Positions 5,997 to 47,496 of a stretch of 64,000 nucleotides of DNA are shown one piece after another. Below the pieces are notes generated by a model, which worked only from the letters and a program-made list of their open reading frames with translations, was not told where the DNA came from and did not search any database. Position numbers and translations under genes: made by a program. Origin of the DNA: a virus (Duplodnaviria > Heunggongvirae > Uroviricota > Caudoviricetes); IMG/VR virus record IMGVR_UViG_3300007609_001205, positions 40,834-104,833 of that record. The stretch is one strand, 5' to 3'. Within the stretch, counting starts at the first letter, position 1. Each line of letters starts with the position of its first letter.

Positions 5997-6053
5997 ATTC
6001 TGAAATATTTTTTTTATATAAACTATATATTAGTATTAAAAACCCACTTTTTT

Positions 6054-6800
6054 CTATTTACCGATATCACCGGAATTTGGGTTTTTCCCATTCGGCTTAC
6101 CATCTCTCAAATTTTTCAAATTATTATACCACTTGGTCCTCATTGGACTGGCTTTCAATGTATCATCCTCCTCGTTAAACGATGGGTAATATGTTTGAAC
6201 TTCAATTTGTGCATTTAACCGTATCTCATTATCACCGGTCAAACCACCCTTTTCTCTCGAAATATCAATACTATTATTATCAGGCATTTGCATATAAGCA
6301 TCAATATGCATATAGTTATATTCAAAGAACATAAATTTATATAACCAAAGTGTATCCATTATTGACTGAGAACACTTAAATGTATCAATTTCAGTTTTCA
6401 ACAATATGGATAGGTCATAAGTGGCACTTATTGGCACAGCCCTTACCTTTTTCAACTCTCTCCTCAATTCAAGTCCCTCTTCTTTAATATCCTTTAACCA
6501 CATATTGGGATTTCTGAATTCATCAGAACGAATTGTCCAATCTTTCAATGTCAGGTGACCACGTGGTATCTGGTCAGTATTAAGTTCGACATACCTATTC
6601 TCGGAAACAATATCATCTTGGAAAGAATCCAAAAGAAATCTCTCATCACCGGACAGAGAATAATAAATCGGAACATTCACCTCAACATCTTTCTTAGTGA
6701 AACGGTTTGTCCATTTTATCCTTCCTTCGAGTGTATCCAACACACAAATGGTCAGATCACGAAAAAATACATCTTGATAATTAAACTTTTTGCCAATCAT
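6054..6800 (-). CDS. hypothetical protein
   Basis: The track ORF 6054..6887 overlaps the start of the clamp-loader gene by ~100 nt. An internal Met (MIGKKF, ~6800) gives a non-overlapping 249-aa product. Confidence 0.45.
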   Translation of the reverse strand: MIGKKFNYQDVFFRDLTICVLDTLEGRIKWTNRFTKKDVEVNVPIYYSLSGDERFLLDSFQDDIVSENRYVELNTDQIPRGHLTLKDWTIRSDEFRNPNMWLKDIKEEGLELRRELKKVRAVPISATYDLSILLKTEIDTFKCSQSIMDTLWLYKFMFFEYNYMHIDAYMQMPDNNSIDISREKGGLTGDNEIRLNAQIEVQTYYPSFNEEDDTLKASPMRTKWYNNLKNLRDGKPNGKNPNSGDIGK

Positions 6801-7782
6801 ACCACTATATATTAAGAAACAAAAACCTCGTAATATGAAAGACTTACTTTTTTGGGAAAGATACAGACCAAGGAAAATGGAAGACATGGTTCTCCCTGAA
6901 AGAATAACAAATCATTTTAAGAATGGACTCAATAAAAATGTTATATTATATGGAGATTTTGGAACAGGGAAAACATCACTTGCAAGAATTCTCATTGGGA
7001 AATATAGAACAGGTACCAATTACATCGAAGTAAACTCATCACTATACACATCAATTGATTTATTGAGAAACGAGATAGAAAAATTCTGCAAATCAACAAA
7101 TATAATAGACACAGAAGATGATGTAAAATATGTTTTCCTAGATGAATATGAACGTGTATCTGCTCAATTCGAAGATGCATTCAAAGCATTTAGTGAAAAA
7201 TACAAACACGTAAGGTTTATTCTAACCACCAACCACTATAACAAAGTATCTAAAGGAATAAAATCAAGGTTTACAGGAATAAACTTCAACTTTCACGAAG
7301 ATGAAAAGAAAGACATTCAACAGAGGTTTTATAAAAAGTTAAAAAATATATGTGCCAACGAATCAATAACCATTGATAATAAGACATTGGCCGATGTTGT
7401 TAAGAAGAATTTTCCCGATATGAGGTCAATGGTACAAAGAGTCCAAGACATCAAAGATACCGGAACAGAAGAGAAGTCAATTGAAATAAATACAGAACTA
7501 CAAGAAAACCTATACAAAACCCTATTCGAAAAAGATATGACATACAATGAAATATATCATTTCGTAATGGATAATTTTGGGGATGATAACATTGATGTAA
7601 TGTTTCAAATATTATCAAGACCATTTGTTGATCATATGATTGAAAAGAAACAATCAGTAAACCAACTCTTCAAATGTAATTATATCATAACCGATACCTA
7701 CCCCAAATTGGAAACAAATGCAGACCCAATTATCGTTGCAATGACAACCATAGGAAGGTTAAGAGATATTCTCACATCTTAA
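6790..7782 (+). CDS. clamp loader ATPase subunit, T4 gp44-like (AAA+)
   Basis: The Walker A motif GDFGTGKTSLARIL, the Walker B motif VFLDEYER, and VKKNFPDMRSMVQRVQDI aligning with T4 gp44 ALVKKNFPDFRKTIGELD. Confidence 0.8.
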   Translation: MPIIPLYIKKQKPRNMKDLLFWERYRPRKMEDMVLPERITNHFKNGLNKNVILYGDFGTGKTSLARILIGKYRTGTNYIEVNSSLYTSIDLLRNEIEKFCKSTNIIDTEDDVKYVFLDEYERVSAQFEDAFKAFSEKYKHVRFILTTNHYNKVSKGIKSRFTGINFNFHEDEKKDIQQRFYKKLKNICANESITIDNKTLADVVKKNFPDMRSMVQRVQDIKDTGTEEKSIEINTELQENLYKTLFEKDMTYNEIYHFVMDNFGDDNIDVMFQILSRPFVDHMIEKKQSVNQLFKCNYIITDTYPKLETNADPIIVAMTTIGRLRDILTS

Positions 7783-7947
7783 TCATTCAAAAATGCTGCT
7801 TCCATAATTTAACCGTACACCCATTTCATAATATCATCGATATATATATCAAATCTATTGCATAATATTCATCACATACGAATGATATATCAACTAAGAT
7901 GAGGTATTCCATTTAAATAATGATGAAAATTCATAAAAAGGTACAAG

Positions 7948-8352
7948 GTGTTCCATATCAATAATATATATTATATGCCAGAGTTCGATTTTAAAGATAT
8001 GTATATAGGATACCAAGGACACCCACGGTTCCAAGTGAATACCATCATAACCGATGACATAATCCGTGTGATTATTCAAAAATACGAGATGATCATCTTC
8101 ACAAATAAAGGAGAACTCTATGGTGATCCAAATTTTGGGGCAGATCTTTTGAAATTATTATACGAAACAAGAATATCAGCAACAGCAACACGAAATGTGA
8201 TTGCTCAACAAATCTCGGAATACATACCAGAATTGAACGATATCGATTATGGGTTGGAAGTTGTATTTGAACAAGACCCGGAAAAGTTCCAAGATATAAT
8301 GATTGTGAATTTCACCATACGTGAATACGAAGTTAAAGCAATAATTGCCTAA
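7948..8352 (+). CDS. baseplate wedge protein, gp25/GPW family
   Basis: TNKGELYGDPNFGADLLKLLYE...ATRNVIAQQISEYIPELNDIDYGLEV aligns with T4 gp25 TRKGSRPFDPEFGCDLSDQLFE...VERNIESAVRNYEPRI. The track start is GTG 7948; there is an ATG at 7975. Confidence 0.7.
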   Translation: MFHINNIYYMPEFDFKDMYIGYQGHPRFQVNTIITDDIIRVIIQKYEMIIFTNKGELYGDPNFGADLLKLLYETRISATATRNVIAQQISEYIPELNDIDYGLEVVFEQDPEKFQDIMIVNFTIREYEVKAIIA

Positions 8353-11300
8353 CTCAACCTCTTAGTACCAAGTGTCGCATTCCTATATTGCTTCGATGTT
8401 AAATTAGCAAATGCCTCTAATTCCTGTATATCAAGTATCCCCTTTATCTCATAATTCTTTCTATCTCTCCAATTAAGACCATAACCATTATTAGAACTCA
8501 CCTCAACAACTATAAATGGGTCAATATTTGAATCAACCGTGAAGTTGAATGGGTCAGTGTTAGAAGATAGCCTTCTCTCACTTATTCGTTGAATTGGATG
8601 TAAATCTATCTCTTTCCATTCTGTTATATCAATCCAATTCGTAAATTGACCACCATTATCATTCACGGGTGGAATAACTGAGGCTGTTACAGATTGTGTC
8701 ATTCCATAACCAGAAAATATATAATTATACCTATTATAACTCACAACATCAGAAACATTATAAGTAGTACCCGTTTTCCATTCCGGAACATCCTCATACT
8801 TCCGAGGGTTATTCAAACGATTATCACCAATAACAGACTCATACACCTTATCAAAATAAATAACCTTTTCACCGACAGAATATGTCTTCAATGGATACCA
8901 TTCACGGTATATCTCATATGTTTTGATATCAACAACATATTCGTCCGGCAATGATTGAGTTACACCAAGTGGTTGATCTGCATAAAAATCAAGAACACAA
9001 TTATACACAGTTGATCCATTATTAACAGGCATCAAATAAGATTCATTCAATCTAAAACTGATAGGTGTCATCGATTCCCTCACATTGAATATGGTAACAT
9101 CTCTCATCTGGTGAGAAATATAAGTGTTCTGAACAAAATCTGTTCGACCGGTGATATCCAATATCTTATGTGATAATGGTATTATATTCCCCTGCAACCA
9201 ATATTTCAAACCTTGTAACTTTTTCTGAACCTCCTCAAGAGTATATGTCAGAACACTATTACCATCTCTATCAGTTATACGGTAAGTAAGGTTGAATAAA
9301 TTCGTGTCTTCATATGTATCATTTGGAAATGTACCTTTCAAAAAGTCATTATCTTCCCACCCCACAACAGTTTGGTCAAATATATCAGGTATCTCTACTT
9401 TGAACAATTTCATATAGTTTTTTGAAAGGCGATCAACATTCTTATAATATTCATACAGTTCAAGGTCATTATAACCAAAATAGTTTATGGCATTTATTAT
9501 TGACTTATATGCCCCAACATATGGGTATATAACATGTCGCATCATCAACATCTCTTTACGTTTCTTATTAAGGAATGTCCAATCAATTCCTTCTTCTTTA
9601 ATATCATACTCCTTAAAAATATAAACATCATCTGATGATATCAATTTACCCATATTGTTCAATTCCGTCTTGTATCTTATGTCTTCATTTTCGGTTTGAC
9701 CATATACGAAAAATCTCCCTATCTCTTTATCCCACACCCTTATACGCAACGACAAATAAGTAATTGAATTATCTGATGGATAGCCATTGACGATTGTTGA
9801 TTCATCTTCGAAAAAATCTATTTCTTTGAAAAATTCAACCTCTATCTCTCTTGAATAAACTGCCTTTACTTTCACCAAATAACCATTATTAACTGATATG
9901 TATTGGTTTGAAGCATTTGAAACATCATTTAAGAAAATGGCTATATGTTGCCCAACTTCAAGACCCCTATTGACAAACATGGTATTTGATTGTGGATTTA
10001 ACTTTATAAAACCCGAACGTTTTCCCGATACGGGATCAACCACGGTTGAAAATGATATTTCATTTGTAATATCTTGTGATACATCAATGGTAAAGTCAAT
10101 ATCTTCCTTCATATACAATTGTAATACTGAACGAAGTGCCCCCTCTTCTCTTGAACGATACCCGACAAAGGTTTCAATTGGTTGTGGTGTTGATGAAATA
10201 TCATCATTATCATCTACAAACCCCAATTCGTGGTCAATTCTCGGAAAAACGGTCTGTTGATAGATGGAATTTCCCACTTTGTCAATATCCCTATTAGGCT
10301 TATTGTTCAAATGAACCGTTGGCAAAGGCTTTTGACCAATATAGGCGAGTGGTCCATCAGTAGTCAGTTGTTCCCCCGAAAAATCATAAAGGAAAAATTC
10401 CGGAACATTATCCGAATACCATTTCCAATAAACACTTGCTGTTATACCGCCATTGAAATTGTATCGTGGTCTTCTCAAATAATCCCTCGTATTCAACCAG
10501 AGACCATCTGGTTGTGTATAATTAGGATGAAGAGCACCATATTGACTTTGTGTAACAGTCAATGGATTCGACACAACCACATTGGAAACCACAAAAGAAA
10601 CTTGTGGAACAACTTCAATTATCTGTGATAATGTAGGTTGCAAAAACCAAACAGAATTCCTATCCGGGTTGAAAACATTTCGTGTAGTATTATCACCAAC
10701 AGGTAATGTGAATAATTCCCTCACAACACCTGTAACAGAATTCATAACAGATATATTTGCATTACCCGGATCCTGATTGGAAATATAAACATCCCCATCA
10801 TAATAATTCAATACTTGGTATCCATATGCAGGCGGTACTGTATTATTATAAAATTGATTGCCATTGCTTGCATTTCTTTTATAAAACTTAGGTGCATCCG
10901 ATGATGCATATATAGAATCATCCACCCCTGAAAATTCAAGATAATTATTCGTTCCTGATGCAATACCAGTTGATATAACAACATTATTATCAATATAATA
11001 TAAATCCGAAGAGTCATAGAAATAAACTGCCTCTCTTACCGGGTCATAGATAACCTCATCATCTGTTACCGATGGAACAGAATACGTATTCACAACGGTT
11101 CGTGTCGAACCATCTATCCTTCTAACATCAGTTGGTGGGGAAACAACATACATATCCCCTTCAAATTCATTGAAAACAATATCATATCCCTGACCCGATA
11201 TGGTCTGCACCAATGAACCGGAATTGTATATTAGAACTGATGTATCTGTCGTAACATAAACATCCCCATTATCACGATTGAAATCAAGTGAGAATGCAGT

Positions 11301-14138
11301 TGATGGTAATGTTACCGAACCAATAAGATTCTGTGTGTAAATATCAATCCAATAAAGATCCCTTTCTTCTAAGGCATATACATAAGAATCATATGTATTA
11401 TAAATCATCTTCAATGGTGAGTAAGTACCTGATAAAGTAACTTGTGATTCTAAATTACTCGTTATTGAATCATATACCAATACATCATTACCAAGTACAA
11501 AAATTGAACTCGATGGTTGCACATAAAGAATATCCACAATAGATTGTGTTGCTGTTGCATATGTGTTCAATGAATATGTTGCCGTGTTTTGGAATGTGAT
11601 ATTATATGCACTCGAAAATTGCTGATTGTTGAATTGACCACCTGACTGGGTCACGGAAATACACCCTGATTGCTGAAACCCATTAGAGAACCCAACAATT
11701 GCAAATGGAGAATTACCATAACACGCCTGAGTCAATCCCCAAAATGGACCCTCATAACTTAAATTCATTATATATGGATCAAGGAATATTATACTATAAT
11801 CAACATTCTGCAATGTATAAACAGTATTATTTACCCCCATGACCATACCCGTAGAAAATCCAGAATCCTCAAAATGAAGACATGAAAATGTTCCGGACTG
11901 TGTTCCGGATTGTGTCCCAAGTATTACCGAATTTGATGTGAGAAGTGAACCATGGTTCCCTTTGAATTTCTCAGTTATCACATAATTACTATCACCTGGC
12001 AAAACACTTGCACCCGGCTTCACACTTATATCACACCTTTGGGATGGGTCTTTAACATTAAATTTCAATGTTGAGCCAAGATTATCAACATATACACCAA
12101 AATCATCCAAAATAAATTGGTGTTGGTCTATCCAATCCTCCAATGTTTCTACCATCGAAGATACCCCACCCGTTGGAAGGCTGTGTGTTACTGGATATGA
12201 TCGATCATTCACAACAATATCCACATATGGTCCATAACTGAAAGTAACACCCTCAATAGATGGTTCGTGAAAAGTTACCTCTGTGTGTTCTATATAAAAA
12301 TCTGCAGTTGAACCAACACTTACATTGAAATCCATTGGAACATTCGGATATTGAGTTTCTAATTTTATAGAATTCTTATAGGGTGAAATCATACCTATTG
12401 TCTGTAATGTTGGTGCAATACCCAAACTCACCAACTCAGATAGGTTGTTATTATACCACTCAATAAGTGTGGCGTGTATTGTTCGTTCCATATCAATCTG
12501 ACCAGATGAATACACAAATTTTATATCTGCTTGATAAATTTCACCATTTATATTTATGACAAACCCAAATTCGTCAAGGTCAGTGAAGACAATATTATAA
12601 AGGAAATTCTCAGATATATCATAATTATACTCACTTGTAAGTTGTTCTTCAACTTCAATAAGTCTTTCTATTTTCTGATTCGTTGTACCAATATTCACCT
12701 GTGGGGTGGTATCTGTTAAAAAATTAACAATAGTGTATTGCGATGGATGCACAAGGTCGGCCTTTAACTCAGAACCTTCATAATAAAGGTCTATATCAAG
12801 CTCAGAAAAGACATCTGAGTACTTATCAGCAGCAGATGCAAGTGTTACCCCCTCAGAGAAGGTGAAACTCTGTGTGAATGCGAATCTATCAACAGTAAGA
12901 TAAACTTTACCATTTACCCCAATTGTCTCATTCACGGGTGTCTGTTCAACGGGTATATAAGTTGCCGTACTTGACCAATAATCCGTATCATCCGGATTTA
13001 CAGTAGTTACCGGTGGAGTAACAGTAAGGTCTTCACTTATGGAGTTAGCAACCCACGTATATGATTGAACACATTGATATATTTTATTCTTCCATATTAC
13101 TTGCTGACCAACTTGGTATGTTGTTTGGTTAGCATTCCCAACAAATGAAGAAATTGGGGAAACTCTATAAAATTGTTGGTTAGATATCGACTCCGGTATC
13201 TTAAATTCAACACCCGGCTTCAATATTTGAGGAACACCCGAAACAAAATCAATAACACCAACAAAACCAAGTGAGTTGGTTGTTGTTGCATCATAAAATT
13301 GCATTGCTCCCTCATAAACCAAAGGAACATCTGTTCTTGTAAGAACTTCTATGAAAAGTCCCGTGTTGGTTGGTAACTGTGTATTTGATACCGAATACTC
13401 ATAATGACTCATATCAAGTAGGTTATCATTCTTTATAGTAACAATATCAACATCATCAAAATCATTAGTTTGTTTATAATCATCATTACTATCAGTATTA
13501 ACAATATTTATCCTCCTACCAACATCGATCTTAGTGTAGAATTCATCCTCATTCCAAGTGGATAAAGTATTCTGTAATGATGGAGTTATGTAATTATAAA
13601 TACCAAGGGCATCAACAGATGATATCTTCTCGTCATTGTATGACGAATTATTCTGATAAGGATACGTATTATCGAAGAACGAATTTGTTTCATCAGATAA
13701 TATCATAATTGCACCCGGCTTTGTTCTTATAACGAAATACATTCTATTGGGGTCTGTGAATCCAAATATAGGATCATCGAACCGTATCAATGTACCAATA
13801 GGAAATTTCTTATGAAAATCAACACCATAAACCCACTTGGAATAATATGAATCCTCAAAATTAACAGGTTCAATAGATGTCACAACCTCAGACAAAACAC
13901 CGGATTCATAGAAATGAAAGCCATATTCATTAAATAACTGCCATTTATCAAGTGTAAGATTCTCTCCACACTCATAATCAAAAGCATCTACATTTTCAAA
14001 CATATAAATGCCCTGTGTTTTAAATGTGTCTGTTGAATTCTCATGAAAGAGGATATCCCCATCATATCTTTCAATATCTGTATTATACGTAATGTTTAAA
14101 GACTTTCCCTCCTTATCAAAGAACCTAAGATTATTCAT
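8349..14138 (-). CDS. very large virion structural protein (1929 aa; baseplate or tail-fibre candidate)
   Basis: Uninterrupted 5.8-kb ORF that is S/T/N/G-rich, with an SGTQSGTQSGT repeat. It is convergent with the gp25-like gene and carries the late-promoter-like motif upstream. Confidence 0.6.
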   Translation of the reverse strand: MNNLRFFDKEGKSLNITYNTDIERYDGDILFHENSTDTFKTQGIYMFENVDAFDYECGENLTLDKWQLFNEYGFHFYESGVLSEVVTSIEPVNFEDSYYSKWVYGVDFHKKFPIGTLIRFDDPIFGFTDPNRMYFVIRTKPGAIMILSDETNSFFDNTYPYQNNSSYNDEKISSVDALGIYNYITPSLQNTLSTWNEDEFYTKIDVGRRINIVNTDSNDDYKQTNDFDDVDIVTIKNDNLLDMSHYEYSVSNTQLPTNTGLFIEVLTRTDVPLVYEGAMQFYDATTTNSLGFVGVIDFVSGVPQILKPGVEFKIPESISNQQFYRVSPISSFVGNANQTTYQVGQQVIWKNKIYQCVQSYTWVANSISEDLTVTPPVTTVNPDDTDYWSSTATYIPVEQTPVNETIGVNGKVYLTVDRFAFTQSFTFSEGVTLASAADKYSDVFSELDIDLYYEGSELKADLVHPSQYTIVNFLTDTTPQVNIGTTNQKIERLIEVEEQLTSEYNYDISENFLYNIVFTDLDEFGFVININGEIYQADIKFVYSSGQIDMERTIHATLIEWYNNNLSELVSLGIAPTLQTIGMISPYKNSIKLETQYPNVPMDFNVSVGSTADFYIEHTEVTFHEPSIEGVTFSYGPYVDIVVNDRSYPVTHSLPTGGVSSMVETLEDWIDQHQFILDDFGVYVDNLGSTLKFNVKDPSQRCDISVKPGASVLPGDSNYVITEKFKGNHGSLLTSNSVILGTQSGTQSGTFSCLHFEDSGFSTGMVMGVNNTVYTLQNVDYSIIFLDPYIMNLSYEGPFWGLTQACYGNSPFAIVGFSNGFQQSGCISVTQSGGQFNNQQFSSAYNITFQNTATYSLNTYATATQSIVDILYVQPSSSIFVLGNDVLVYDSITSNLESQVTLSGTYSPLKMIYNTYDSYVYALEERDLYWIDIYTQNLIGSVTLPSTAFSLDFNRDNGDVYVTTDTSVLIYNSGSLVQTISGQGYDIVFNEFEGDMYVVSPPTDVRRIDGSTRTVVNTYSVPSVTDDEVIYDPVREAVYFYDSSDLYYIDNNVVISTGIASGTNNYLEFSGVDDSIYASSDAPKFYKRNASNGNQFYNNTVPPAYGYQVLNYYDGDVYISNQDPGNANISVMNSVTGVVRELFTLPVGDNTTRNVFNPDRNSVWFLQPTLSQIIEVVPQVSFVVSNVVVSNPLTVTQSQYGALHPNYTQPDGLWLNTRDYLRRPRYNFNGGITASVYWKWYSDNVPEFFLYDFSGEQLTTDGPLAYIGQKPLPTVHLNNKPNRDIDKVGNSIYQQTVFPRIDHELGFVDDNDDISSTPQPIETFVGYRSREEGALRSVLQLYMKEDIDFTIDVSQDITNEISFSTVVDPVSGKRSGFIKLNPQSNTMFVNRGLEVGQHIAIFLNDVSNASNQYISVNNGYLVKVKAVYSREIEVEFFKEIDFFEDESTIVNGYPSDNSITYLSLRIRVWDKEIGRFFVYGQTENEDIRYKTELNNMGKLISSDDVYIFKEYDIKEEGIDWTFLNKKRKEMLMMRHVIYPYVGAYKSIINAINYFGYNDLELYEYYKNVDRLSKNYMKLFKVEIPDIFDQTVVGWEDNDFLKGTFPNDTYEDTNLFNLTYRITDRDGNSVLTYTLEEVQKKLQGLKYWLQGNIIPLSHKILDITGRTDFVQNTYISHQMRDVTIFNVRESMTPISFRLNESYLMPVNNGSTVYNCVLDFYADQPLGVTQSLPDEYVVDIKTYEIYREWYPLKTYSVGEKVIYFDKVYESVIGDNRLNNPRKYEDVPEWKTGTTYNVSDVVSYNRYNYIFSGYGMTQSVTASVIPPVNDNGGQFTNWIDITEWKEIDLHPIQRISERRLSSNTDPFNFTVDSNIDPFIVVEVSSNNGYGLNWRDRKNYEIKGILDIQELEAFANLTSKQYRNATLGTKRLS

Positions 14139-14204
14139 TTAAATGATCAATTTGGTGTATATATAAAATTAGGTTATTCTCGGACAAATTCATATATTTA
14201 CAAA

Positions 14205-14486
14205 ATGAAAGTAATAATTGTATGGTATGAGAACTTTGTGTTCTTATATAAACATGGGAATAAATTAGGAACTGCTATAACAAATCAAATAGAATATTTG
14301 GAATATTTTGAAGGTACTAAAAAAGAATTCATGGTGAGATACCAAAAAGATTATCCAACTTCATCAAAACAAATTTTCTGCGATTCAAAACACCCACTTC
14401 GATTCCATATCAGACAGGCTATCGAAACATCATCCGAATTCAAAATAGTTGAAAGAAGTAGGAAATTGAAGAATATATTACGATAA
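14205..14486 (+). CDS. hypothetical small protein
   Basis: 93-aa ORF sitting between two minus-strand genes; balanced composition. Confidence 0.3.
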   Translation: MKVIIVWYENFVFLYKHGNKLGTAITNQIEYLEYFEGTKKEFMVRYQKDYPTSSKQIFCDSKHPLRFHIRQAIETSSEFKIVERSRKLKNILR

Positions 14487-15605
14487 TTTATCAGAGGAGG
14501 ATTTATAATTCTCCTCATACTTCTGAAGTATAATATCATACTGTTCTACCATAACTTCTCGAAATTTATCATTTGAATAAGTTTGGCGTTCAATATAGTT
14601 CTTGATATAATTTTCATAATCCAACTTCGTAGTTATCTCAACATCACCATCAGCAGCCTCTAGCAATATCTCTTCTTCATCTTCCTCATCCTCATCATCT
14701 ACTATATCATCAAGATAATCAATTGAAGCAAATCCACCTTTTGACAGTAATATCTCTAAATTCCTACGAATCTTCCTATCGGTAACAAGTAGGTTATTTG
14801 AAATAACAAGGTCTATATAATCCTTAGAATTTATCTCATCATCCAACTTATCAATATCTTCCTTTTCCTTTATAACAATTTCACGGAATATAGGTGAATA
14901 TTTATTTGGTACAAATTCAATCTCACCTGAATCTGGCCGAAGTATGGTTATTCCCTTCTGATCACCACGGTCATTCCTATCCATCTGATACGGAGAACCT
15001 ATAAATGTAAAGTTTTTAGTTCGTTGACGGATATGTATATGACCACTGAAAACATGCTCATATCTCGAAAATGCAGAAACATCAATTTTATCATGGTTTC
15101 TATGTGCAACAGAATTAAGATGCATTCGACAACCATTCAGATCGGAATGACAAAACAAATAATCACCCGGGCTATTCTCTATTTCCTTTATCATATCCAC
15201 TCTATGCTCAACCCAAGGCATAAGTACAAGTTTCTTTTCAGCAAAATCAATTGTAGTTGTTTCTGTATAAACATGAACATCATCTATATGATCGAAAAGC
15301 CTAACCGAATTAACATCATTCGTTCCCTTATTCCATAGATCATGGTTTCCAACTATCATATGAACTGGGAGTATCTTAGATATCTCTGTTATTATCTTCT
15401 CTGCTTTATAAGAAACAATAATAGGAATTGCAGTCCTATTATCATAGAGATCACCACAATGGATAAGAATATCTCCCTCTTCAACATTTTCTTTCAGAAA
15501 TGGTATATAGGAGTTCATAAAATAATCCTCCATCATATCCAACCATTTATCCAAATTATTCAAGTAAACACCAAAGTGCCAATCCGTAGTAATAAAAACC
15601 TTCAT
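14478..15605 (-). CDS. Mre11/SbcD-type nuclease, T4 gp47-like (calcineurin-like phosphoesterase)
   Basis: MKVFITTDWHFG, HCGDLYD and VGNHD are metallophosphoesterase motifs and are collinear with T4 gp47. Acidic C-terminal tail. Confidence 0.8.
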   Translation of the reverse strand: MKVFITTDWHFGVYLNNLDKWLDMMEDYFMNSYIPFLKENVEEGDILIHCGDLYDNRTAIPIIVSYKAEKIITEISKILPVHMIVGNHDLWNKGTNDVNSVRLFDHIDDVHVYTETTTIDFAEKKLVLMPWVEHRVDMIKEIENSPGDYLFCHSDLNGCRMHLNSVAHRNHDKIDVSAFSRYEHVFSGHIHIRQRTKNFTFIGSPYQMDRNDRGDQKGITILRPDSGEIEFVPNKYSPIFREIVIKEKEDIDKLDDEINSKDYIDLVISNNLLVTDRKIRRNLEILLSKGGFASIDYLDDIVDDEDEEDEEEILLEAADGDVEITTKLDYENYIKNYIERQTYSNDKFREVMVEQYDIILQKYEENYKSSSDKLS

Positions 15606-15656
15606 ATAATCTATTGATTTTAAAGGTTATATACATTATCACAGAATATGTTTAAG

Positions 15657-15694
15657 AAAAAAAAAACCCACCAATCGAATAAATGATTGGTGGG
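15657..15694 (-). terminator. intrinsic terminator (CCCACCAATC / GATTGGTGGG stem)
   Basis: 10-bp stem preceded by A10 on the + strand, which reads as hairpin + T10 on the minus strand. It lies between the tail tube and sbcD-like genes. Confidence 0.55.
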
Positions 15695-15716
15695 TTCAAA
15701 AATACACTCAATAGGA

Positions 15717-16343: not shown

Positions 16344-16544
16344 ATGTTTTATGTTTCTTTTTGTTATATATTCCTTAGAATATTCTCTCTTGTATTATAT
16401 ATTCCAAACAAAAAGTCATTTTTTAACTTTCATCACAAAAAAGAAATATAAACATCAGTATATACCACACTAAAAAAGAGTTTTTATATTTTATATATAA
16501 TAATAGACTCACATAAAAAGTGGTCTAAAAATAAAGTATCTGTT

Positions 16545-16727: not shown

Positions 16728-16744
16728 GACCAAACTAAACATAA

Positions 16745-17371: not shown

Positions 17372-17444
17372 ATATATTATATTTTAAACATAACAAGGGA
17401 GGGATTATATAAACATATATATGCTATAAAAATAACTTACTATT

Positions 17445-37350: not shown

Positions 37351-37446
37351 TCTATCTAATCTTTTTCTATGTAATTATATATAATGTATATATATTAAAC
37401 ATATATCGCAAAGATACTAAAAATATTAACATAATTATGTTTTCAA

Positions 37447-38538: not shown

Positions 38539-38587
38539 TATGAAAAAAAGGGATTTTCAATAATAATATATAATACATAAAATTATT

Positions 38588-39178: not shown

Positions 39179-39212
39179 ATAGGACAAATACAACACTTAT
39201 TAAAAATAAAAA

Positions 39213-39237
39213 GGGAGATTCTAATCTCCCTTTTTTT
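39213..39237 (+). terminator. intrinsic terminator (GGGAGAT-TCTA-ATCTCCC + T7)
   Basis: Perfect 7-bp GC-rich stem followed by T7. Confidence 0.7.
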
Positions 39238-39251
39238 ATATATAAATAGCA

Positions 39252-39857
39252 ATGAAACATATAACTGAATTCCAAAATTATAAACAAGACATATTTATAG
39301 TAGATGTACAAAAGTCATTTAAGAAATATTTCACAGATACTTATTTGGAAAAATTAAAGGAACATTGCAAACAATTCACAAATGTATATCAAATATGGGA
39401 TAATCATATAGACAAAGATTCAGACTCAGATTATCTATATGACCATAATCCCAAAATACCAAATCACCCAGATCTCTATAAATTCCCAAACCAAAAGAAA
39501 TTAATAGAGAAAAGGTATAATTATAATGTAGATGCAGATTTTTACAAGAAAATTCTAACTGAAAAGAATTGGAACAAAATAAGTGAGATGGAAGAAAACA
39601 AAACAATCAAAAAAGGCGATATATTTCCAACAATCGAAGGAACTGTCATTGTGTATATAGGAAATAACCACAAGTGGTTTCACTCTCCTAAAAAATTATA
39701 CAACATATTCAATGACCTCAAAGGCAAATCTATTGAAATTGTTGGCGGGGCTGATAACGAATGTTTGGATGATGTTTTCACCCTTGCAGAAAGCATGGGT
39801 GTGAAACCCACACGAAACCACCAATTCATTTATTCTGCAACACACTGCCCTCTATAA
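39252..39857 (+). CDS. hypothetical protein
   Basis: 201-aa ORF. Confidence 0.5.
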   Translation: MKHITEFQNYKQDIFIVDVQKSFKKYFTDTYLEKLKEHCKQFTNVYQIWDNHIDKDSDSDYLYDHNPKIPNHPDLYKFPNQKKLIEKRYNYNVDADFYKKILTEKNWNKISEMEENKTIKKGDIFPTIEGTVIVYIGNNHKWFHSPKKLYNIFNDLKGKSIEIVGGADNECLDDVFTLAESMGVKPTRNHQFIYSATHCPL

Positions 39858-41115: not shown

Positions 41116-41541
41116 TTAAAAAAAAGTAAAAAAAGTTGATATAATAGAAATTACTGCAATTGTTGAAGCAATATAAATGTTCCTCAATAATTTTCTTGAA
41201 TCCAACCTTTTATACGAAACAACAATCAAATATGAATATTTATCGACTTTCTTTATTGGTTCTTCTCTATCAAATCCATACAATTCAGCCAAACCTTTTG
41301 AATTCAAGTATTCAGACAATTGCTTAACAAATTCCTTTATATAATTCTCAGCAATAGTATCAATATCACCCGTTCTAATATTATAAGGTTCTTCAAAAAG
41401 GTCTTCCGGAATATTCAATACTGTATATAACCTACTCGCATTATCAATCCGCATACCAAATTTCTTTTTAATTTCCCCACGATTCTCTTTCAATGTTTTT
41501 GAATAAGAAAAGTAAAGATCCATATCTTTCAATAAGCCCAT
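41116..41541 (-). CDS. hypothetical protein with C-terminal TM anchor
   Basis: C-terminus IYIASTIAVISIISTFFTFF. Confidence 0.45.
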   Translation of the reverse strand: MGLLKDMDLYFSYSKTLKENRGEIKKKFGMRIDNASRLYTVLNIPEDLFEEPYNIRTGDIDTIAENYIKEFVKQLSEYLNSKGLAELYGFDREEPIKKVDKYSYLIVVSYKRLDSRKLLRNIYIASTIAVISIISTFFTFF

Positions 41542-41578: not shown

Positions 41579-44383
41579 TTATATATCATCATCAAGTTGT
41601 CTCTGTCTTATACTCATTAGATAATTTTTCAAAGTACCCGATGAACCAACTACACTCGATATGTCAGCAAGCAATGCTGCTACCGTATCCAACTTATCAC
41701 CCAACCCATTCATATCCACTTCCTTGGATGTAGAACCAGCAACAGAAACAGCCGTACCTGATTCACTTCGTTTCTTATCCATATCAAGAGTAAGTTGCCC
41801 AAAAACATCCGACTTCTGTTCTAATTTAGTCATCATCATATCAAATTGATCAGGGTCAATTAATGATAACATTACAACAGAAGATGATAATGATCGTATT
41901 GCCTGCATTTTTTCAAGATCCAATGAACTGATTGAATCAGAGAAACGTTCCATAGATGTACCAAGTTTCTCAAAAGAATCTGCCATAACAACTATGGTAT
42001 CAGTATCTCTCAACCTCTCTACTATATCAAGATATCCAAATATCGCACCTTTTACACCTTGCATATAATATTCATCCGGATAGAACATCCAATTACCCTG
42101 TGAAAATATCCTATCAACCTGTAAAATTCCTTCGGCAATATCAGGAAGTCCAAGACCAACAAAATCAAGCAATTCAGTTGCAATTATATTCAATAGATCA
42201 ATTTCCCTAAAAGCACGTACAAAACTTGTAAGTGTTGCAGAAACACCGCTTATCCATTCAGTTGTTGGAAATTTGGAATAATCCCCTTTACTCAAAAGAC
42301 TGGAAACAGTATAAATAGAACCAGCCATTGCAACCATAGAAGCAGTTCCTATCGCTATCATTGGACCGAACATGATCGAACCAACACCAAATGCTGCAAG
42401 AACACCACCAAATTTCAACAAAGTCATTGCAGCACCGGACATCCAATCAGTTGTTGGGAATTTACTATAATCACCTTTGGATAAAAGCAATGAAACAGAA
42501 TATATTGTACCCGCAACCGCGAGAATAGACATAGACCCAAAAAGAATAGCCGGACCCATAACAGCCATACCTAGTGTCATTATACCAAATGAGGTCATTG
42601 TGAGTGCAACACCACCTACCCAAGCAATCCCGGGATAAGCATTCGTATCATAATTACCCATTGCTAATATATGTGATGTAGCAACTATGGTAAATGCAAG
42701 TGTAACTACTGATGCTGCACCGGCTGCCAATACCAATGCGCCTGTCCCACCCGATGCAACCATTAAAGCACCGAGTGCCAATGTTGATACACCAAATGTA
42801 AGTATAGAAAGACCAACTCCCGCAACCCAACTAACATCTGGATATGTTCCATATTCACCCATTGATAATATATGAGAACTTGCTGCAATAGTAGAAGCAA
42901 TTATAAGAACAGATGCCCCACCAACAAGGTAATCACTTACCTTACCCAACCTACCAACGGCAACCATTGATAATCCCAAAACCGGGGTAACAACAGCTAA
43001 TGCAAGACCCAAACCAACAACTGTTAATAGTTGATCAACACGTAATGGAACTATTGCACTCATTATAATAGATGAAGCTGTTATGGCAGTAGATACTGCC
43101 GTAAAGAAAAGAGGCATCATAAATAACTTACCAACACCCATTGTTTTCTCAAGTATCACCATACCAATAGCAATCTTATCCATAAAATATGATATACCAG
43201 CAAATATACCAGCAATAACAATCGATGTAAGTGCTTGTGTCATAGATATGGGTACTATAAGATTCATCACCCAAGATGAAGCTGTTATGGCAGTAGATAT
43301 AGAAACAAGGCTTAAAAACAGCTTACCTGGATTGATTTTATGTTTATCAAAAGCAGCAACACCTTTCATCATCTTATCCATATTCATCGCAACAACTGCA
43401 AATGTACCCGATATCATTATCGCAGTAAGTCCTTGTGTAAAGGAAACCGGTACTATTAAATTCATGACCCAAGATGCAGCAGTTATAGCACCCGAAATTG
43501 ACATCAAAGCCAATAAAACTTTCTTACTATCAATACCAGCAGCTTCATACTCAGCAACACCCTTCATCATCTTAGACATACTAGAAGAAATTATAGCAAA
43601 TGTACCTGAGATAACAATTGCAGTCAAACCTTGACTAAATGATATAGGAACTATTAGGTTCATCGCCCATGATGCTGCAACAATACCCGCACTTACCGCA
43701 CCAAACATAGCAAGGACACTTGATGAACTCACATTTGCCTTGTCATATTCAGAAGCACCTGACATCAATTCACTCATACTACTTGCAATGATAGAGAACA
43801 TCCCAGCAATTATAAGACCAGTTGCCAATTGAAATGGACTGACCGGAATAACCAATTGTAGTGCCCAAGAGGAAAACGCAATTGCAGATGCCATAGTAGC
43901 AGTAACACCAAATAAACTTGCCATGTTCCTTGGTGTCAGATCTTTCATCTCTGCAATTCTTTCAAATGCATACGCAATCAATGGTAATGATATGGATAAT
44001 GCTATCACAGAAGCCCAGTCAACTGTTCCAACCAGTTGGAAAGCCAATCCAATTGCCATAACTGCACCAGCAATCAAGACAATTACACTCACACCATCTT
44101 TCAACATTTCTTTCTGCTTACCTGCTCCCTGAAATACCTCAGATGTTGGGGATTGTTGCTGTTTTTGTAATTTTATTATGGTTTCTTGATTATCAAGTAT
44201 TTTCTTATTATCCTCTTTCAATGATTCAATTCCCTCTGATATTTCCAATAAACCCCCCGAAAATCCACCTCCTTGCATTGCACTTCCAACCGAAGAAACT
44301 TGCTTCTTATTATCTAAATGATCAGCAACTTGTTGTAAGGCTTCTGCCACATTATTCAAGGCATTAAGTAATTCTCTATCCAT
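41579..44383 (-). CDS. tail tape measure protein candidate with internal tandem repeats
   Basis: 934 aa with coiled-coil ends. The centre holds four or more ~65-aa hydrophobic repeats (SSWAMNLIVPISFSQGLTAIVISGTFA...SSMSKMMKGVAEY) and a second family (SLLSKGDYSKFPTTDWMSG ×2). The late-promoter-like motif lies upstream. Confidence 0.6.
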   Translation of the reverse strand: MDRELLNALNNVAEALQQVADHLDNKKQVSSVGSAMQGGGFSGGLLEISEGIESLKEDNKKILDNQETIIKLQKQQQSPTSEVFQGAGKQKEMLKDGVSVIVLIAGAVMAIGLAFQLVGTVDWASVIALSISLPLIAYAFERIAEMKDLTPRNMASLFGVTATMASAIAFSSWALQLVIPVSPFQLATGLIIAGMFSIIASSMSELMSGASEYDKANVSSSSVLAMFGAVSAGIVAASWAMNLIVPISFSQGLTAIVISGTFAIISSSMSKMMKGVAEYEAAGIDSKKVLLALMSISGAITAASWVMNLIVPVSFTQGLTAIMISGTFAVVAMNMDKMMKGVAAFDKHKINPGKLFLSLVSISTAITASSWVMNLIVPISMTQALTSIVIAGIFAGISYFMDKIAIGMVILEKTMGVGKLFMMPLFFTAVSTAITASSIIMSAIVPLRVDQLLTVVGLGLALAVVTPVLGLSMVAVGRLGKVSDYLVGGASVLIIASTIAASSHILSMGEYGTYPDVSWVAGVGLSILTFGVSTLALGALMVASGGTGALVLAAGAASVVTLAFTIVATSHILAMGNYDTNAYPGIAWVGGVALTMTSFGIMTLGMAVMGPAILFGSMSILAVAGTIYSVSLLLSKGDYSKFPTTDWMSGAAMTLLKFGGVLAAFGVGSIMFGPMIAIGTASMVAMAGSIYTVSSLLSKGDYSKFPTTEWISGVSATLTSFVRAFREIDLLNIIATELLDFVGLGLPDIAEGILQVDRIFSQGNWMFYPDEYYMQGVKGAIFGYLDIVERLRDTDTIVVMADSFEKLGTSMERFSDSISSLDLEKMQAIRSLSSSVVMLSLIDPDQFDMMMTKLEQKSDVFGQLTLDMDKKRSESGTAVSVAGSTSKEVDMNGLGDKLDTVAALLADISSVVGSSGTLKNYLMSIRQRQLDDDI
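42280..43950. repeat. intragenic tandem repeats (~195-nt period) within the tape-measure gene
   Basis: Protein-level repeats are mirrored at the DNA level. The antisense ORF 43083..43634 is also internally repetitive. Confidence 0.55.
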
Positions 44384-44443
44384 TAGTAACTTTTAATTAT
44401 GAGTTATATATAAATTATACAAAGACATCTTAATATATAAACT

Positions 44444-44917
44444 ATGAAAACAAACAATATTATGGGGTTCAAGTCATTCATACATAAAGTAAAAGAGTCA
44501 TACCGAGATAGGAAAAAAGATGAAATATTGGATAAGATGATTGCCAAAAAACCAATAACTGATTTTGAAAAGGAATTTTTAAAAAATTTCGACACAATAG
44601 ATACAAAGGATATGATGGATTTTGTTATGCTCGATAAACAAACTACACATAATCAAATAACTTACTTACTCAATAAAGGTTGTAAAATAATATGTAACCT
44701 TTCCGACAGAAATGGTAAAATAGGACTTCCCATAGTATCAATATACAATGATTTCAATGATGAATTCTCAACTGTCAAAGTTACAAGTGGTGAAAAATGT
44801 AAATTGAAAACAAATTACCTATACAACATAATATACAATAACCGAAAAAATGAATATTCATTGGAAGAACACGATGTATATTATGAAAAAATACCAGTAA
44901 ATAACGATGATACTTAA
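44444..44917 (+). CDS. hypothetical protein
   Basis: 157-aa ORF. Confidence 0.4.
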   Translation: MKTNNIMGFKSFIHKVKESYRDRKKDEILDKMIAKKPITDFEKEFLKNFDTIDTKDMMDFVMLDKQTTHNQITYLLNKGCKIICNLSDRNGKIGLPIVSIYNDFNDEFSTVKVTSGEKCKLKTNYLYNIIYNNRKNEYSLEEHDVYYEKIPVNNDDT

Positions 44918-45176
44918 ATTCAAAGAATTCAATGAGGCAAATGGTATAGAATGGTTGGGTCCAGTTGGACCGGGTTGGCCAGAAACAAAAACACCGAATA
45001 CATTAAGTGATAATGATACAAATATCAAGCAATGTGAAATTGATAATAAATTATACACATACGATGATTATCAAACCATATATCAAGAATACTTAAAATT
45101 GGGCAATGGTCCATTGAATGGATTTACATTGGATAATCTCAACACAGTAGTCCAAACATTACAAGAAGAGAATTAA
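44907..45176 (+). CDS. hypothetical protein
   Basis: 89-aa ORF. Confidence 0.35.
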   Translation: MILKFKEFNEANGIEWLGPVGPGWPETKTPNTLSDNDTNIKQCEIDNKLYTYDDYQTIYQEYLKLGNGPLNGFTLDNLNTVVQTLQEEN

Positions 45177-47425
45177 ACATTATATAGAGGTATTTTCACA
45201 TCTACATTATTCAATGTAAGACATAAATATCCATATGTTGCTCCTGTTGTAGATGCAGTTGCAATAGGTGAATATGTTGAGCCAACAACAAACTGTGAAC
45301 CAGTTGATACTACTGCCTTATAACCAAGTGCAATTGAATCATCTGAAAATGATGAACCTGGTTGTACAAAACTCTCAGCACCAATAAATACACTATGACT
45401 CCCTGTATGAACTCCACCAGAACCAAAACCTACACTTACATTATAACCACCGGAAGTATTAGAACCACCAGCGTTAAATCCAATATATGTATTCTGACCA
45501 CCGGTCGTGTTACTTGACCCAGAGGTATATCCTAAAAATGTATTATTATTACCCGTTGTATTAACAATTCCAGCATCTCTTCCAAAAAAAGCATTTTGAA
45601 CACCATCACTTGACCTACCCGCCCTTTGACCAACATAAGTATTCTTTGAACCTGTTGTATTTAAATAACCTGCCTCGTGTCCAACAAATGTATTACATTC
45701 ACCACTTATATTAAAACGCCCCGATGAAGAACCTATAAATGTATTTCGAAACCCTATGGTATTAACTTGACCAGATGCATTACCCATAAATATATTATCA
45801 TTCCCACTTGTATTGGATTTACCCGACCAATACCCTACAAATACATTCCTAGAATTCGTATTAGCTTGTCCTGCCTCATACCCCACAATAACATTACACG
45901 AACCTAAAACATTTGACTCACCAGAGCCATCACCCACATAAACATTCCGACCACCACTAACATTTGACTCACCCGAAGAAAGTCCCAAAAAAGTATTTTT
46001 TGTTCCACTTGTGGTGTTCCGCCCAGCAGCATAACCAATAAATGTATTATCACCACCGGTGGTGGAAACTCCTGTATGGGACCCAATAAACACAGAATTT
46101 GATATAACTGAAGAACTACCACCAGAACTTCTACCAATAACAACAGAATCTGTTATATTTGTTGATGCAGAAGCAGCAGCAATACCCATAACAGTAGCAT
46201 CACTTCCAATATTCGAAGGCTCTTTATATGTAACAAAAACATCACCATTCAAAACGTCAATATAACCAGCAGACCCTGTTGCACCTGTTGCTCCCATTGG
46301 ACCAGTTGCCCCAACTGAATAACTAGTACCCATTGTAGATAAATCCACTAACTCAATGTTACCACCATTTACAATACTCGAACCCGTGGCTGCACTCAAA
46401 GTACCATTCAATATCACCACTTGTCCAAATGTTGCAATGTCAAGTGTACCGAATACCTCAAGATCACCATAAACAAAATAACTCTGATAATTACCAACAC
46501 TCACTGTTTGACTTGCCGTTATGGTATATTGTGGATAAACTGGCTCAATTGGTAATTGATAAATACCTTGTGCCCCACCAACATTATATAAAGAAAGACC
46601 CGTGCCTGCAATCAGATCAATTGATATATCACGAGTTACCAATGAAGGTTGTTCTACATTTATACCGGTACCACCCAAAACATTTGCCAATAGGTCAACT
46701 TGTTGAACTGACCCTGAACCTGAATTGACTATTGTCCCTGAACCTGAAATTGTTCCATTTATAACAACTACTTTCCCATAATTATCCAATAGACCATCAA
46801 CTTCAAGATCCCCATATGTCATGTACAAGGATTGGGTTGATACACTCACTGTTTCACCGGTTGGTATCGACCATTGTGGATATGAAGAACCATCCGAAAA
46901 TTCTTGTCTTTCCCATGCACCACTTAAATAAGACCATATTGGTCCCTGATCATCATCTACTCTAATTGACATCCCCTCTGTCGGACTCGTATAAGACCAA
47001 GTACCACCATTGAATTCGGCAATTTGGTCATCTTTACCTAACCATCCACCAACACCACCGTATATGAGATACCTATCCCCCGTACTCGGAACTAAAAGAG
47101 ATGGGTCTCCTGTACGTGTAACTGCAGAATCCTGCCACTCAGTTGTGAAACTTGCACTTGGACCCAATGCCAATAATTGCCAATTTGAATTATCATAAAG
47201 ATCAGAAGAAACCAATTGTTTCAATTGATAGAAATCATCACTACCTTCAACATAAACCATCATACCAAAATCCCTTCGGTCAGTCGGTATCTGATTTCTT
47301 TCCGCCAAATTACTCACTGTATGAAGACCACCCTTTATCTCATCGGCATATGCCGTTGGGATGGTCATCCCTGTTGTAAGTGGTCTGATCGGTGAAGATA
47401 CTAATGTTCCTTTATTCTGAGCCAT
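45173..47425 (-). CDS. tail fibre/spike protein with beta-helical GxSNTxG repeats and a short collagen-like tract
   Basis: More than 14 repeats of a ~14-aa unit (NTFIGYAAGRNTTSG / KNTFLGLSSGESNVSGG ...) plus ATGPMGATGATGSAGY. The late-promoter-like motif lies upstream. Confidence 0.6.
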   Translation of the reverse strand: MAQNKGTLVSSPIRPLTTGMTIPTAYADEIKGGLHTVSNLAERNQIPTDRRDFGMMVYVEGSDDFYQLKQLVSSDLYDNSNWQLLALGPSASFTTEWQDSAVTRTGDPSLLVPSTGDRYLIYGGVGGWLGKDDQIAEFNGGTWSYTSPTEGMSIRVDDDQGPIWSYLSGAWERQEFSDGSSYPQWSIPTGETVSVSTQSLYMTYGDLEVDGLLDNYGKVVVINGTISGSGTIVNSGSGSVQQVDLLANVLGGTGINVEQPSLVTRDISIDLIAGTGLSLYNVGGAQGIYQLPIEPVYPQYTITASQTVSVGNYQSYFVYGDLEVFGTLDIATFGQVVILNGTLSAATGSSIVNGGNIELVDLSTMGTSYSVGATGPMGATGATGSAGYIDVLNGDVFVTYKEPSNIGSDATVMGIAAASASTNITDSVVIGRSSGGSSSVISNSVFIGSHTGVSTTGGDNTFIGYAAGRNTTSGTKNTFLGLSSGESNVSGGRNVYVGDGSGESNVLGSCNVIVGYEAGQANTNSRNVFVGYWSGKSNTSGNDNIFMGNASGQVNTIGFRNTFIGSSSGRFNISGECNTFVGHEAGYLNTTGSKNTYVGQRAGRSSDGVQNAFFGRDAGIVNTTGNNNTFLGYTSGSSNTTGGQNTYIGFNAGGSNTSGGYNVSVGFGSGGVHTGSHSVFIGAESFVQPGSSFSDDSIALGYKAVVSTGSQFVVGSTYSPIATASTTGATYGYLCLTLNNVDVKIPLYNV

Positions 47426-47496
47426 TTAATTAAATAGATTTTAACTATATATTAAATACCTATTGTAGTTTACCAAAAATTACTTATCTTTGTATT

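Follow-up and report, generated by a model that had tools for sequence, protein, structure and literature searches.

Short runs of alternating T and A recur immediately before genes in a 64-kb stretch of tailed-phage DNA (IMG/VR record IMGVR_UViG_3300007609_001205, positions 40,834 to 104,833; hereafter the window), which raises the question of whether they are promoters and, if so, what reads them. The original prediction, made from six sites upstream of structural genes, was that they are a variant late −10 element for a gp55-like sigma factor encoded by the same phage. Our analysis reveals an ATATATA motif that is enriched, oriented, regularly spaced from start codons and conserved in relatives, together with a protein with a gp55-like fold and another with a sliding-clamp fold. 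The motif is very probably an oriented promoter box. That the gp55-like protein reads it is likely, with less certainty.

The window has 33% G+C, and its non-coding DNA is 75% A+T. Against this background ATATATA occurs 84 times, compared with 37 ± 7 copies in dinucleotide shuffles, and none of 100 shuffles reaches 84. TATATA is the most over-represented non-coding hexamer among all 2080 reverse-complement pairs, with 38–43 copies observed and about 11 expected (38 versus 11.2, z = 7.9), a 3.4- to 3.8-fold excess over a Markov-1 model of the non-coding DNA (25% G+C). Its density is about one per 85 nt in non-coding DNA versus one per 1077 nt in coding DNA. Positions −50 to −1 contain TATATA in 32 of the 69 genes, against 12.9 ± 2.7 (maximum 20) for dinucleotide-shuffled upstream regions. 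An unbiased strand-specific count of 7-mers in positions −45 to −1 ranks ATATATA first (28 of 70 genes); it is found upstream of 28/69 genes in the sense orientation and of 16 in antisense. The T4-type ATAAATA is not enriched in the window, where it stands upstream of 3/69 genes versus 28/69 for ATATATA. A frequency far above the AT-rich background is confirmed, as is an enrichment upstream of genes.

We oriented each site towards its downstream gene and aligned 38 sites from the window. The base immediately before TATATA (−1) is A in 31 of the 38 and the base immediately after it (+1) is A in 21, while position −2 is A or T and position −3 is T or G. The consensus is [A/T]ATATATA, with the fuller form [T/G][A/T]ATATATA[A], and the flanks originally proposed, A or T before and A or C after, are borne out. 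Conservation ends at position −3, with nothing like a −35 block farther upstream, and the columns downstream of the box are mostly A/T. When the sites of the window are pooled with those of its two close relatives, LR756502.1 and LR745206.1 (87 sites), A is present at −1 in 78/87 and T at +1 in 15/87 (Fisher p = 3e-23). This asymmetry of the flanks implies that the box is directional despite its palindromic core. Boxes are present in 23/30 divergent, 59/96 tandem and 3/21 convergent intergenic regions (p = 1e-5, divergent versus convergent), and their density is 7-fold higher in divergent than in convergent regions.

Several boxes adjoin the 3′ side of intrinsic terminators. Terminator 15697–15664 is followed by the box 15628–15633 (minus strand), 22 nt before the ATG of the SbcD/gp47-like gene 14478–15605, whose orthologue in LR745206.1 also has a box. 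Terminator 28953–28981 is followed by the box 29031–29036 (plus strand), 25 nt before the ATG of gene 29062–29346. Upstream of ATG 29882 the order is a hairpin (29841–29866), two T, TATATATA and five bases, with a (TA)4 box at 29869–29876 (plus strand). Upstream of ATG 39252 (gene 39252–39857) it is a hairpin (39209–39234), two T, TATATATA and seven bases, with a (TA)4 box at 39237–39244 (plus strand).

Relatives of the window were found by protein search only; 8 kb of the window had no megablast match among GenBank phages. The large terminase (33860–35959) is 54% identical to that of LR756502.1 (642 kb) and 53% identical to that of LR745206.1 (635 kb), both from uncultured phages. Remoter terminase matches are found in a 735-kb phage, Tenacibaculum phage PTm1 and phage PAU. 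These genomes make up the ‘Mahaphage’ clade, for which Bacteroidetes are predicted as hosts (PMC7162821); LR756502 and LR745206 are placed as sister to the marine megaphage Mar_Mega_1 (PMC9723777). We compared 42 kb of LR756502.1 and 50 kb of LR745206.1 (loci L002 and L005), and further stretches of LR756501.1 (45001–95000, L009), PTm1 (NC_049340.1:1–49999, L008), Tenacibaculum phage pT24 (NC_049383.1:125001–174000, L010) and Prevotella phage Lak-A1 (MK250016.1:210001–260000, L011).

TATATA is also the top non-coding hexamer in LR756502.1 (36 copies versus 8.7 expected) and in LR745206.1 (36 versus 7.3). ATATATA is the top strand-specific upstream 7-mer in the window, in these two relatives and in the 735-kb LR756501.1, where it precedes 11/57 genes at 10–30 nt from the start codon. 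In the window and the two close relatives the distance of the box before orthologous genes is kept while the flanks diverge. For gene 32996–33619 (box 33641–33646, minus strand) it is 21, 21 and 20 nt in the three genomes, for the 29062 gene 25, 24 and 24 nt, and for gene 17445–18395 (plus strand) 23, 22 and 23 nt; the last has two boxes in the window, 17406–17411 and 17416–17421, at 33 and 23 nt. The sheath-gene box is present in all three genomes, as is the succession of hairpin, T-run, box, 5–7 nt and ATG before the 39252 gene. In LR756502.1 the terminase gene and the 32996 orthologue form a divergent pair with just one palindromic AATATATATT box between them, 21 nt from each start codon, and the terminase orthologues have the box 21 nt upstream. 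The (TA)n run itself varies from 3 to 5 repeats among orthologous sites.

In the pooled set, the spacing between the box, measured from its last A, and the start codon is sharply bimodal. A short spike comprises 15 genes at 4 nt and 5 genes at 5 nt (20/87, p = 8e-10 versus a uniform spread), and a long peak at 19–21 nt comprises 19/87 genes (p = 3e-6). About a third of the sites lie 4–7 nt from the ATG, a class of sites missed in the original prediction. After start corrections, about 16 window genes fall in the short class, structural genes included. The possibility that the short class is an artefact of wrongly called starts was considered and rejected, as most of these genes have no other methionine within 40 codons and the arrangement is conserved in orthologues. 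The housekeeping box of Flavobacterium, TAnnTTTG, occupies positions −12 to −5 (PMC9723704), and by this register a box followed by 4 nt and ATG puts the A of the start codon at +1. On our reading, transcripts of the short class would be leaderless, and those of the long class would have a leader of about 15 nt. Leaderless mRNAs make up only about 5% in Flavobacterium (PMC9723704), compared with a predicted share here of roughly a third of the box-bearing genes. No boxes at 4–5 nt form a class in the LR756501.1 stretch, and the leaderless geometry thus appears confined to the subgroup of the window, LR756502 and LR745206.

The structural genes of the window encode a tail sheath, a tail tube, the large terminase, a head-closure protein, a tail spike/fibre and a baseplate-wedge-like protein. 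The box heads the sheath, tube, baseplate-wedge, tail-spike and 1929-aa genes and the terminase unit. All six sites of the original prediction exist as (TA)3–4 runs, five of them where it had placed them; the box of the 1929-aa gene (8349–14138), put at 14146–14159, is at 14158–14165, about 6–10 nt away. Measured from the last A, the six sites lie 18–30 nt before the start codons rather than 8–28 nt. All are on the minus strand: a (TA)4 box at 25751–25758, 30 nt before the ATG of the tail sheath gene (21470–25720) and kept in LR756502.1 and LR745206.1; a (TA)4 box at 44405–44412, 21 nt before the 934-aa gene 41579–44383, for which the label of tape measure finds no family support; the box 16365–16370, 21 nt before the tail tube gene (15717–16343), with a second copy (16396–16401) at 52 nt; that of the 1929-aa gene, at 19 nt; the box 47446–47451, 20 nt before the tail spike/fibre gene (45173–47425); and two boxes, 6015–6020 and 6024–6029, at 18 and 27 nt before gene 4719–5996, where a box is kept before the orthologues.

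The proposed restriction to structural genes does not hold. The box also heads the genes for SbcD, UvsX (49495–50709; box 49469–49474, plus strand, 20 nt), a PNK-like protein (36787–37350; two (TA)4 boxes, 37376–37383 and 37387–37394, minus strand, 25 and 36 nt) and the sliding clamp (60093–60872; box 60060–60065, plus strand, 27 nt), as well as three HNH endonuclease genes and many small genes without known function. Occurrence before early-type genes, which the original prediction had named as evidence against itself, is thus found in part. A box is present at 6/7 well-annotated structural transcription units versus 6/13 non-structural ones, a difference that is not significant. T4-like phages without MotA/AsiA put late boxes before homologues of T4 middle genes (PMC2984593). 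By this analogy, a box before non-structural genes does not contradict a gp55-type promoter. Of the proposal of a variant late −10 element, the oriented −10-type box, the lack of a −35 element and the match to the T4 box TATAAATA at 7/8 positions stand, while ‘late’ timing is unproven because the box is not confined to structural genes. Its presence at recombination, clamp and endonuclease genes suggests that it probably drives a post-early (middle and late) programme, not morphogenesis alone. Dividing the boxes by the base after TATATA (TATATAAT versus TATATAAC or CA) into early and late classes is an idea only, with few sites.

The phage encodes a gp55 homologue, as predicted. Open reading frame (ORF) 4201–4572 (minus strand) codes for a gp55-like sigma factor of 123 aa, consisting of a sigma region-2 domain and a disordered conserved tail. 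A PHROG profile search assigns it to phrog_234, ‘late sigma transcription factor’ (E 1.5e-7), and phmmer against T4 gp55 gives E 4.6e-4. The AlphaFold model (pLDDT 81) has four helices and the disordered tail. Its best fold match in the PDB is T4 gp55 in an open promoter complex (7d7c_F, TMq 0.72, rmsd 1.9 Å), followed by sigma-E region 2 in complex with −10 DNA; the link to T4 gp55 is thus made by the PHROG profile and the fold search. The homologues of XacN1 and Xoo-sp13 carry the annotation of late sigma factor, and PAU, pT24 and Lak phages encode others, the Lak protein being 37% identical to that of the window. The family comprises 252 metagenome clusters, all of about 121–125 aa, and the protein of the window is itself represented in JGI, ENA and Logan data, for example in SRR5210209. 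The tail, SNDGxGLHS[IL]-COOH (codons within 4201–4275), hardly varies among 30 homologues and may serve as a clamp-binding peptide, though of another type than that of T4.

T4 gp55 takes up three flipped-out adenines of the box in pockets: that at −12 in one lined by Y97, that at −9 in one lined by N13 and H95, and that at −8 in one lined by T99 (PMC7892883). The gp55-like protein conserves Y97 (Y79), T99 (T81), F86 (F68) and N13 (N5), and H95 is replaced by F77. The replacement of H95 by F as the explanation for the change from A to T at −9 was rejected, as F is also present in Lak-A1 and pT24, which use ATAAATA. The only clean split among the sigma factors is at T4 N104, which is N in ATAAATA users versus R (R86) in ATATATA users. 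No ATATATA box precedes the gp55-like gene in the window, LR756502.1 or LR745206.1, which fits a factor that must be made first. The region upstream of this gene (4573–4718) contains a strong terminator (4701–4673) and neither ATATATA nor TAnnTTTG. A short TATAAC before the gene is shared with the two close relatives, at a variable distance.

ORF 60093–60872 (plus strand, 259 aa) gave only a weak Pfam Hus1 hint and was followed up by structure prediction. The AlphaFold model (pLDDT 91) has beta-clamps and PCNA as its top PDB fold matches (E about 1e-11), and on this predicted fold we assign it with confidence as a two-domain DNA sliding clamp of the gp45/PCNA type. It has no PHROG match, and phmmer searches of the window with T4 gp45 and gp62 found nothing. 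The gp44-like clamp loader (6835–7782, plus strand) is identified by phrog_168 (E 2e-47) and by phmmer against T4 gp44 (E 4e-21); its start is corrected from TTG 6790 to ATG 6835, orthologue alignments beginning at residue 15–19.

Taken together, these findings suggest that the box is a −10-type promoter element, without a −35 element, of the megaphage’s own transcription programme. Host RNA polymerase core carrying the 123-aa sigma factor would read it on the non-template strand, as a one-base variant of the T4 box that has T in place of A at T4 position −9. In the 64 kb, about 35 boxes would head transcription units in two geometries. In one, the box is followed by about 19–21 nt and ATG, which would give a 5′ leader of roughly 15 nt; in the other, it is followed by 4–5 nt and ATG, which would make the A of the start codon the likely transcription start of a leaderless mRNA. 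By analogy with T4, the sliding clamp may tether or activate the polymerase. A wider picture, which we put forward tentatively and hold to be somewhat doubtful, is that in the >630-kb Mahaphage branch a minimal, region-2-only sigma factor has been retuned from ATAAATA to ATATATA and drives about half of the transcription units, a third of them leaderless with an exact box-N4/5-AUG arrangement. The central base would then be a lineage-specific setting that gives related Bacteroidota jumbo phages mutually distinct promoter specificities.

Several observations weigh against this proposal, in which promoter activity, the gp55-like reader, the start sites, the timing and the role of the clamp are all inferred. 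The likeness in sequence to T4 gp55 is weak (hhalign probability 19%), and a gp55-like profile run against PDB sequences retrieved nothing at E ≤ 1. T4 gp55 is 60 aa longer than the gp55-like protein, whose model has no fifth helix and hence no helix-loop-helix, a motif that T4 gp55 needs for open-complex formation (PMC7892883). The tail of the gp55-like protein is unlike the T4 clamp-binding epitope SLDFLYEAND. No gp33 homologue was found, T4 gp33 not having been used as a query, and no other ORF with the gp55-like tail is present in the window or in the stretches of LR756502.1, LR745206.1 and LR756501.1. No residue explains the base change at −9, since the H95 position is F in users of both ATATATA and ATAAATA. 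If the last A is put at −6, as in the T4 register, a spacer of 4 nt would make the T of ATG the start site, and the leaderless interpretation requires the box to be one base nearer the start. Should the box also drive the clamp gene, the clamp that first activates transcription would have to come from another source. The boxes before SbcD, UvsX, PNK-like, clamp and HNH genes also speak against a late-specific element. The shorter protein, the absent helix-loop-helix and the unlike tail imply that the mechanism may differ in detail from that of T4.

The variants of the box found in related phages that have gp55-like genes bear on the identity of the reader. In Lak-A1, with ORFs called with TAG read through, the T4-type ATAAATA precedes 16/62 genes in sense and none in antisense; Lak megaphages appear to keep this box. 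In pT24, ATAAATA precedes 10/49 genes in sense, among them tail-fibre, baseplate, ribonucleotide reductase (RNR) and thyA genes and its own gp55-like gene, gp171. In PTm1, ATACATA precedes 10/56 annotated genes in sense and 2 in antisense, typically 15–27 nt before the ATG, with ATAGATA second and TATATA not used, and looks like a third ATA-n-ATA variant. The central base is thus A in Lak and pT24, C in PTm1 and T here, while the hosts, recorded or predicted, are Bacteroidota in all cases. A central base that is specific to the phage lineage among phages with related hosts argues for a phage-encoded reader over the host housekeeping sigma factor. The Bacteroidetes box TAnnTTTG precedes DNA polymerase, helicase and small genes in pT24 (13 sense, 4 antisense; 16–28 nt from the ATG), so that host-type and T4-type boxes are cleanly split in that phage. 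It is not enriched in the sampled megaphage loci, nor within 60 nt upstream of genes in the window (5 sense versus 3 antisense). Window genes 47497 and 55522 have TAnnTTTG exactly 4 nt before the ATG (TATCTTTGtattATG and TATATTTGcatcATG), which is the host-promoter version of the leaderless geometry.

A different view is that the box is a promoter read by a housekeeping or alternative host sigma factor, or by another phage sigma factor or RNA polymerase encoded outside the window, with the gp55-like protein acting on a different target; we regard it as unlikely. Such a reader would fit the presence of the box before every functional gene class, early-type functions included, and the scarcity of TAnnTTTG in the sampled megaphage DNA, which means that something must drive the early genes. 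In addition, the window is 64 kb of a genome of probably over 600 kb, and huge phages can encode sigma-70-like factors (PMC7162821). However, the Bacteroidetes sigma-A box (PMC9723704) is not matched, as the ATATATA sites have neither TTTG nor a −33 element and no window gene has both ATATATA and TAnnTTTG. Sigma-70-type pairs (TTGACA, a 16–18 nt spacer and TATAAT) are at shuffle level in positions 1–20000 (118 matches versus 112 ± 11). Family and profile searches of the window proteins found no RNA polymerase gene. The lineage-dependent base, and the identity at 7/8 positions to a box known to be read by gp55, also point away from such a reader.

Whether the element acts in DNA at all is a separate matter. 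The very tight spacing to the start codon (4–5 and 19–21 nt), the sense-strand orientation and the scarcity of Shine-Dalgarno-like sequences upstream of the genes would suit an RNA-level element, either an AU-rich processing site or a translation enhancer in a host whose translation makes no use of Shine-Dalgarno sequences. Yet boxes are densest in divergent intergenic regions, which have no upstream transcript to process, and several lie directly 3′ of intrinsic terminators. The single palindromic box of LR756502.1 stands 21 nt from two divergent starts, a ribosome-binding element would not be expected at two distinct distances, and the sequence is close to that of an established promoter element in DNA; an RNA-level role is in our view quite improbable. 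Lower still is the probability of a site for a dimeric regulator or of a functionless (TA)n microsatellite, which we think hardly credible. The palindromic core, the variable number of repeats at orthologous sites and the A+T richness of the spacers speak for it. It is at odds with the size of the excess and the first rank among 2080 hexamer pairs, the strongly asymmetric flanks, the fixed spacing to start codons, the near absence of the box from convergent spacers, and a position that is kept in orthologous spacers that have otherwise diverged.

The box can also be used to examine gene starts. Nine start codons were revised or questioned by means of the box (68, 6800, 6835, 7975, 17365, 29882, 33699, 38597 and 53165). 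At these genes the starts of the longest ORFs are probably wrong, and the position of the box suggests shorter genes. Starts 68, 6800, 6835, 7975 and 29882 are backed by orthologue alignments or an independent gene call. The box 57–62 (plus strand) lies 5 nt before ATG 68 of an HNH endonuclease gene (68–1639), and an independent 523-aa gene call agrees on this start. The box 6806–6811 (minus strand) lies 5 nt before ATG 6800, the corrected start of the gp15-like gene 6054–6800, whose orthologue alignment begins at residue 30. The box 7965–7970 (plus strand) lies 4 nt before ATG 7975, the corrected start of the baseplate-wedge-like gene (phrog_261), and the LR756502.1 orthologue has a box too. 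ATG 29882, 5 nt after its box, is the corrected start of 29789–30730, with orthologue alignments beginning at residue 32. Starts 17365, 33699, 38597 and 53165 are suggestions only: ATG 17365, 5 nt after the box 17371–17376 (minus strand), for gene 16745–17371; ATG 33699, 4 nt after the (TA)4 box 33687–33694 (plus strand), for a 58-aa ORF that overlaps the start of the terminase gene; ATG 38597, 24 nt after the box 38567–38572 (plus strand), for gene 38588/38597–39178; and ATG 53165 for 52452–53189, 5 nt from the minus-strand reading of a (TA)4 box (53171–53178) that on the plus strand lies 19 nt before the ATG of 53198–54154.

The remaining sites follow the same two geometries or scatter around them. 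On the plus strand, boxes lie 4 nt before the ATG of an HNH endonuclease gene (box 18649–18654, gene 18659–20296), of 44444–44917 (44434–44439) and of 54708–55142 (54698–54703), 6 nt before the ATG of 54187–54678 (54175–54180) and of 61923–62405 (61911–61916), and 2 nt before that of 20335–21000 ((TA)4 box 20325–20332). The box 61341–61346 (plus strand) lies 4 nt before GTG 61351 of ORF 61351–61569, whose start is uncertain. On the minus strand, boxes lie 4 nt before the ATG of 51584–52147 (52152–52157), 12 nt before that of 51087–51293 (51306–51311), 20 nt before that of 25801–28032 (28053–28058) and 38 nt before that of 41116–41541 (41580–41585). A (TA)4 box at 49387–49394 (minus strand) lies 16 nt before GTG 49370 or 28 nt before ATG 49358 of the HNH endonuclease gene 47934–49370. 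The clamp-gene box, read on the minus strand, is also 20 nt before ATG 60039 of gene 59608–60060.

Other features of the window deserve mention. Besides the T4-type replication and recombination genes (gp44-like clamp loader, SbcD/gp47 and UvsX), it contains several HNH endonucleases and NAD-salvage genes. The HNH/homing-type endonuclease genes (47–1639, 18659–20296, 47934–49370 and 63255–63728) are scattered across the structural and replication modules, and 3/4 have an ATATATA box of their own. A box-free operon (56325–58894) encodes an NMNAT-like cytidylyltransferase and a nicotinamide phosphoribosyltransferase; Mar_Mega_1 likewise has NAD-salvage genes (PMC9723777). The sheath protein has 1416 aa, of which only the C-terminal ~350 aa match the sheath family, and the N-terminal 1050 aa have no family match. 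Two perfect bidirectional terminator hairpins have T-runs on both strands, one (21426–21450) in the spacer 21400–21469 between convergent genes and the other (39208–39235) in the spacer 39179–39251 between tandem genes.

Transcription in the uncultured Mahaphage-clade megaphages is not described in the searchable literature, in which we found no description of an ATATATA box or of megaphage promoters. The box is easily scanned; it would mark the starts of transcription units, correct gene starts, predict a leaderless gene class and provide a concrete pairing of a 123-aa sigma factor with an 8-bp box. Variant gp55 boxes are already known, and this is not a new kind of system; what goes beyond routine annotation is the sharp box-N4/5-ATG class and the lineage-specific central base.

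Bacteroidetes sigma-A promoters (TAnnTTTG with a −33 TTTG) resemble the elements described here in having a single dominant box near the start site that begins with TA, in similar distances from box to ATG, and in that the 4-nt geometry is the leaderless geometry of a −12 to −5 box (PMC9723704). They differ in the TTTG and the −33 element. Another close system is T4, whose late promoters carry TATAAATA at −13 to −6, often with A for T at −13 and no −35 element (PMC1524935, PMC2988020); gp55 reads them together with gp33 and the gp45 sliding clamp (PMC2988020, PMC1524935, PMC7892883). Both phages have an 8-bp, all-A/T, ATA-n-ATA box with A or T first, no −35 element and an A/T-rich downstream region; in both it precedes virion genes, and both encode a gp55-like sigma factor, a sliding clamp and a clamp loader. 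In contrast to T4, the central base is T instead of A, so that 7/8 positions are identical, the sigma factor has 123 aa and its model has neither a helix-loop-helix nor a T4-type acidic/hydrophobic clamp-binding tail, and the box also heads recombination, clamp and endonuclease genes, with about a third of the sites 4–7 nt from the ATG. Among T4-like phages, variant late boxes are known from Aeromonas phage Aeh1 (CTAAATA), cyanophages S-PM2 and Syn9 (NATAAATA) and RB49 (PMC1524935, PMC2984593, PMC2988020). These offer a precedent for a diverged gp55 that goes with a diverged box, but their changes are at −13/−12, whereas those in the window and in PTm1 are at −9, a position whose base is among the three for which T4 gp55 has a pocket (PMC7892883). 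The comparison of T4, Lak, pT24, PTm1 and the window suggests that this flipped-out base can change in evolution, which would make these phages a natural system for how a region-2-only sigma factor sets its specificity.

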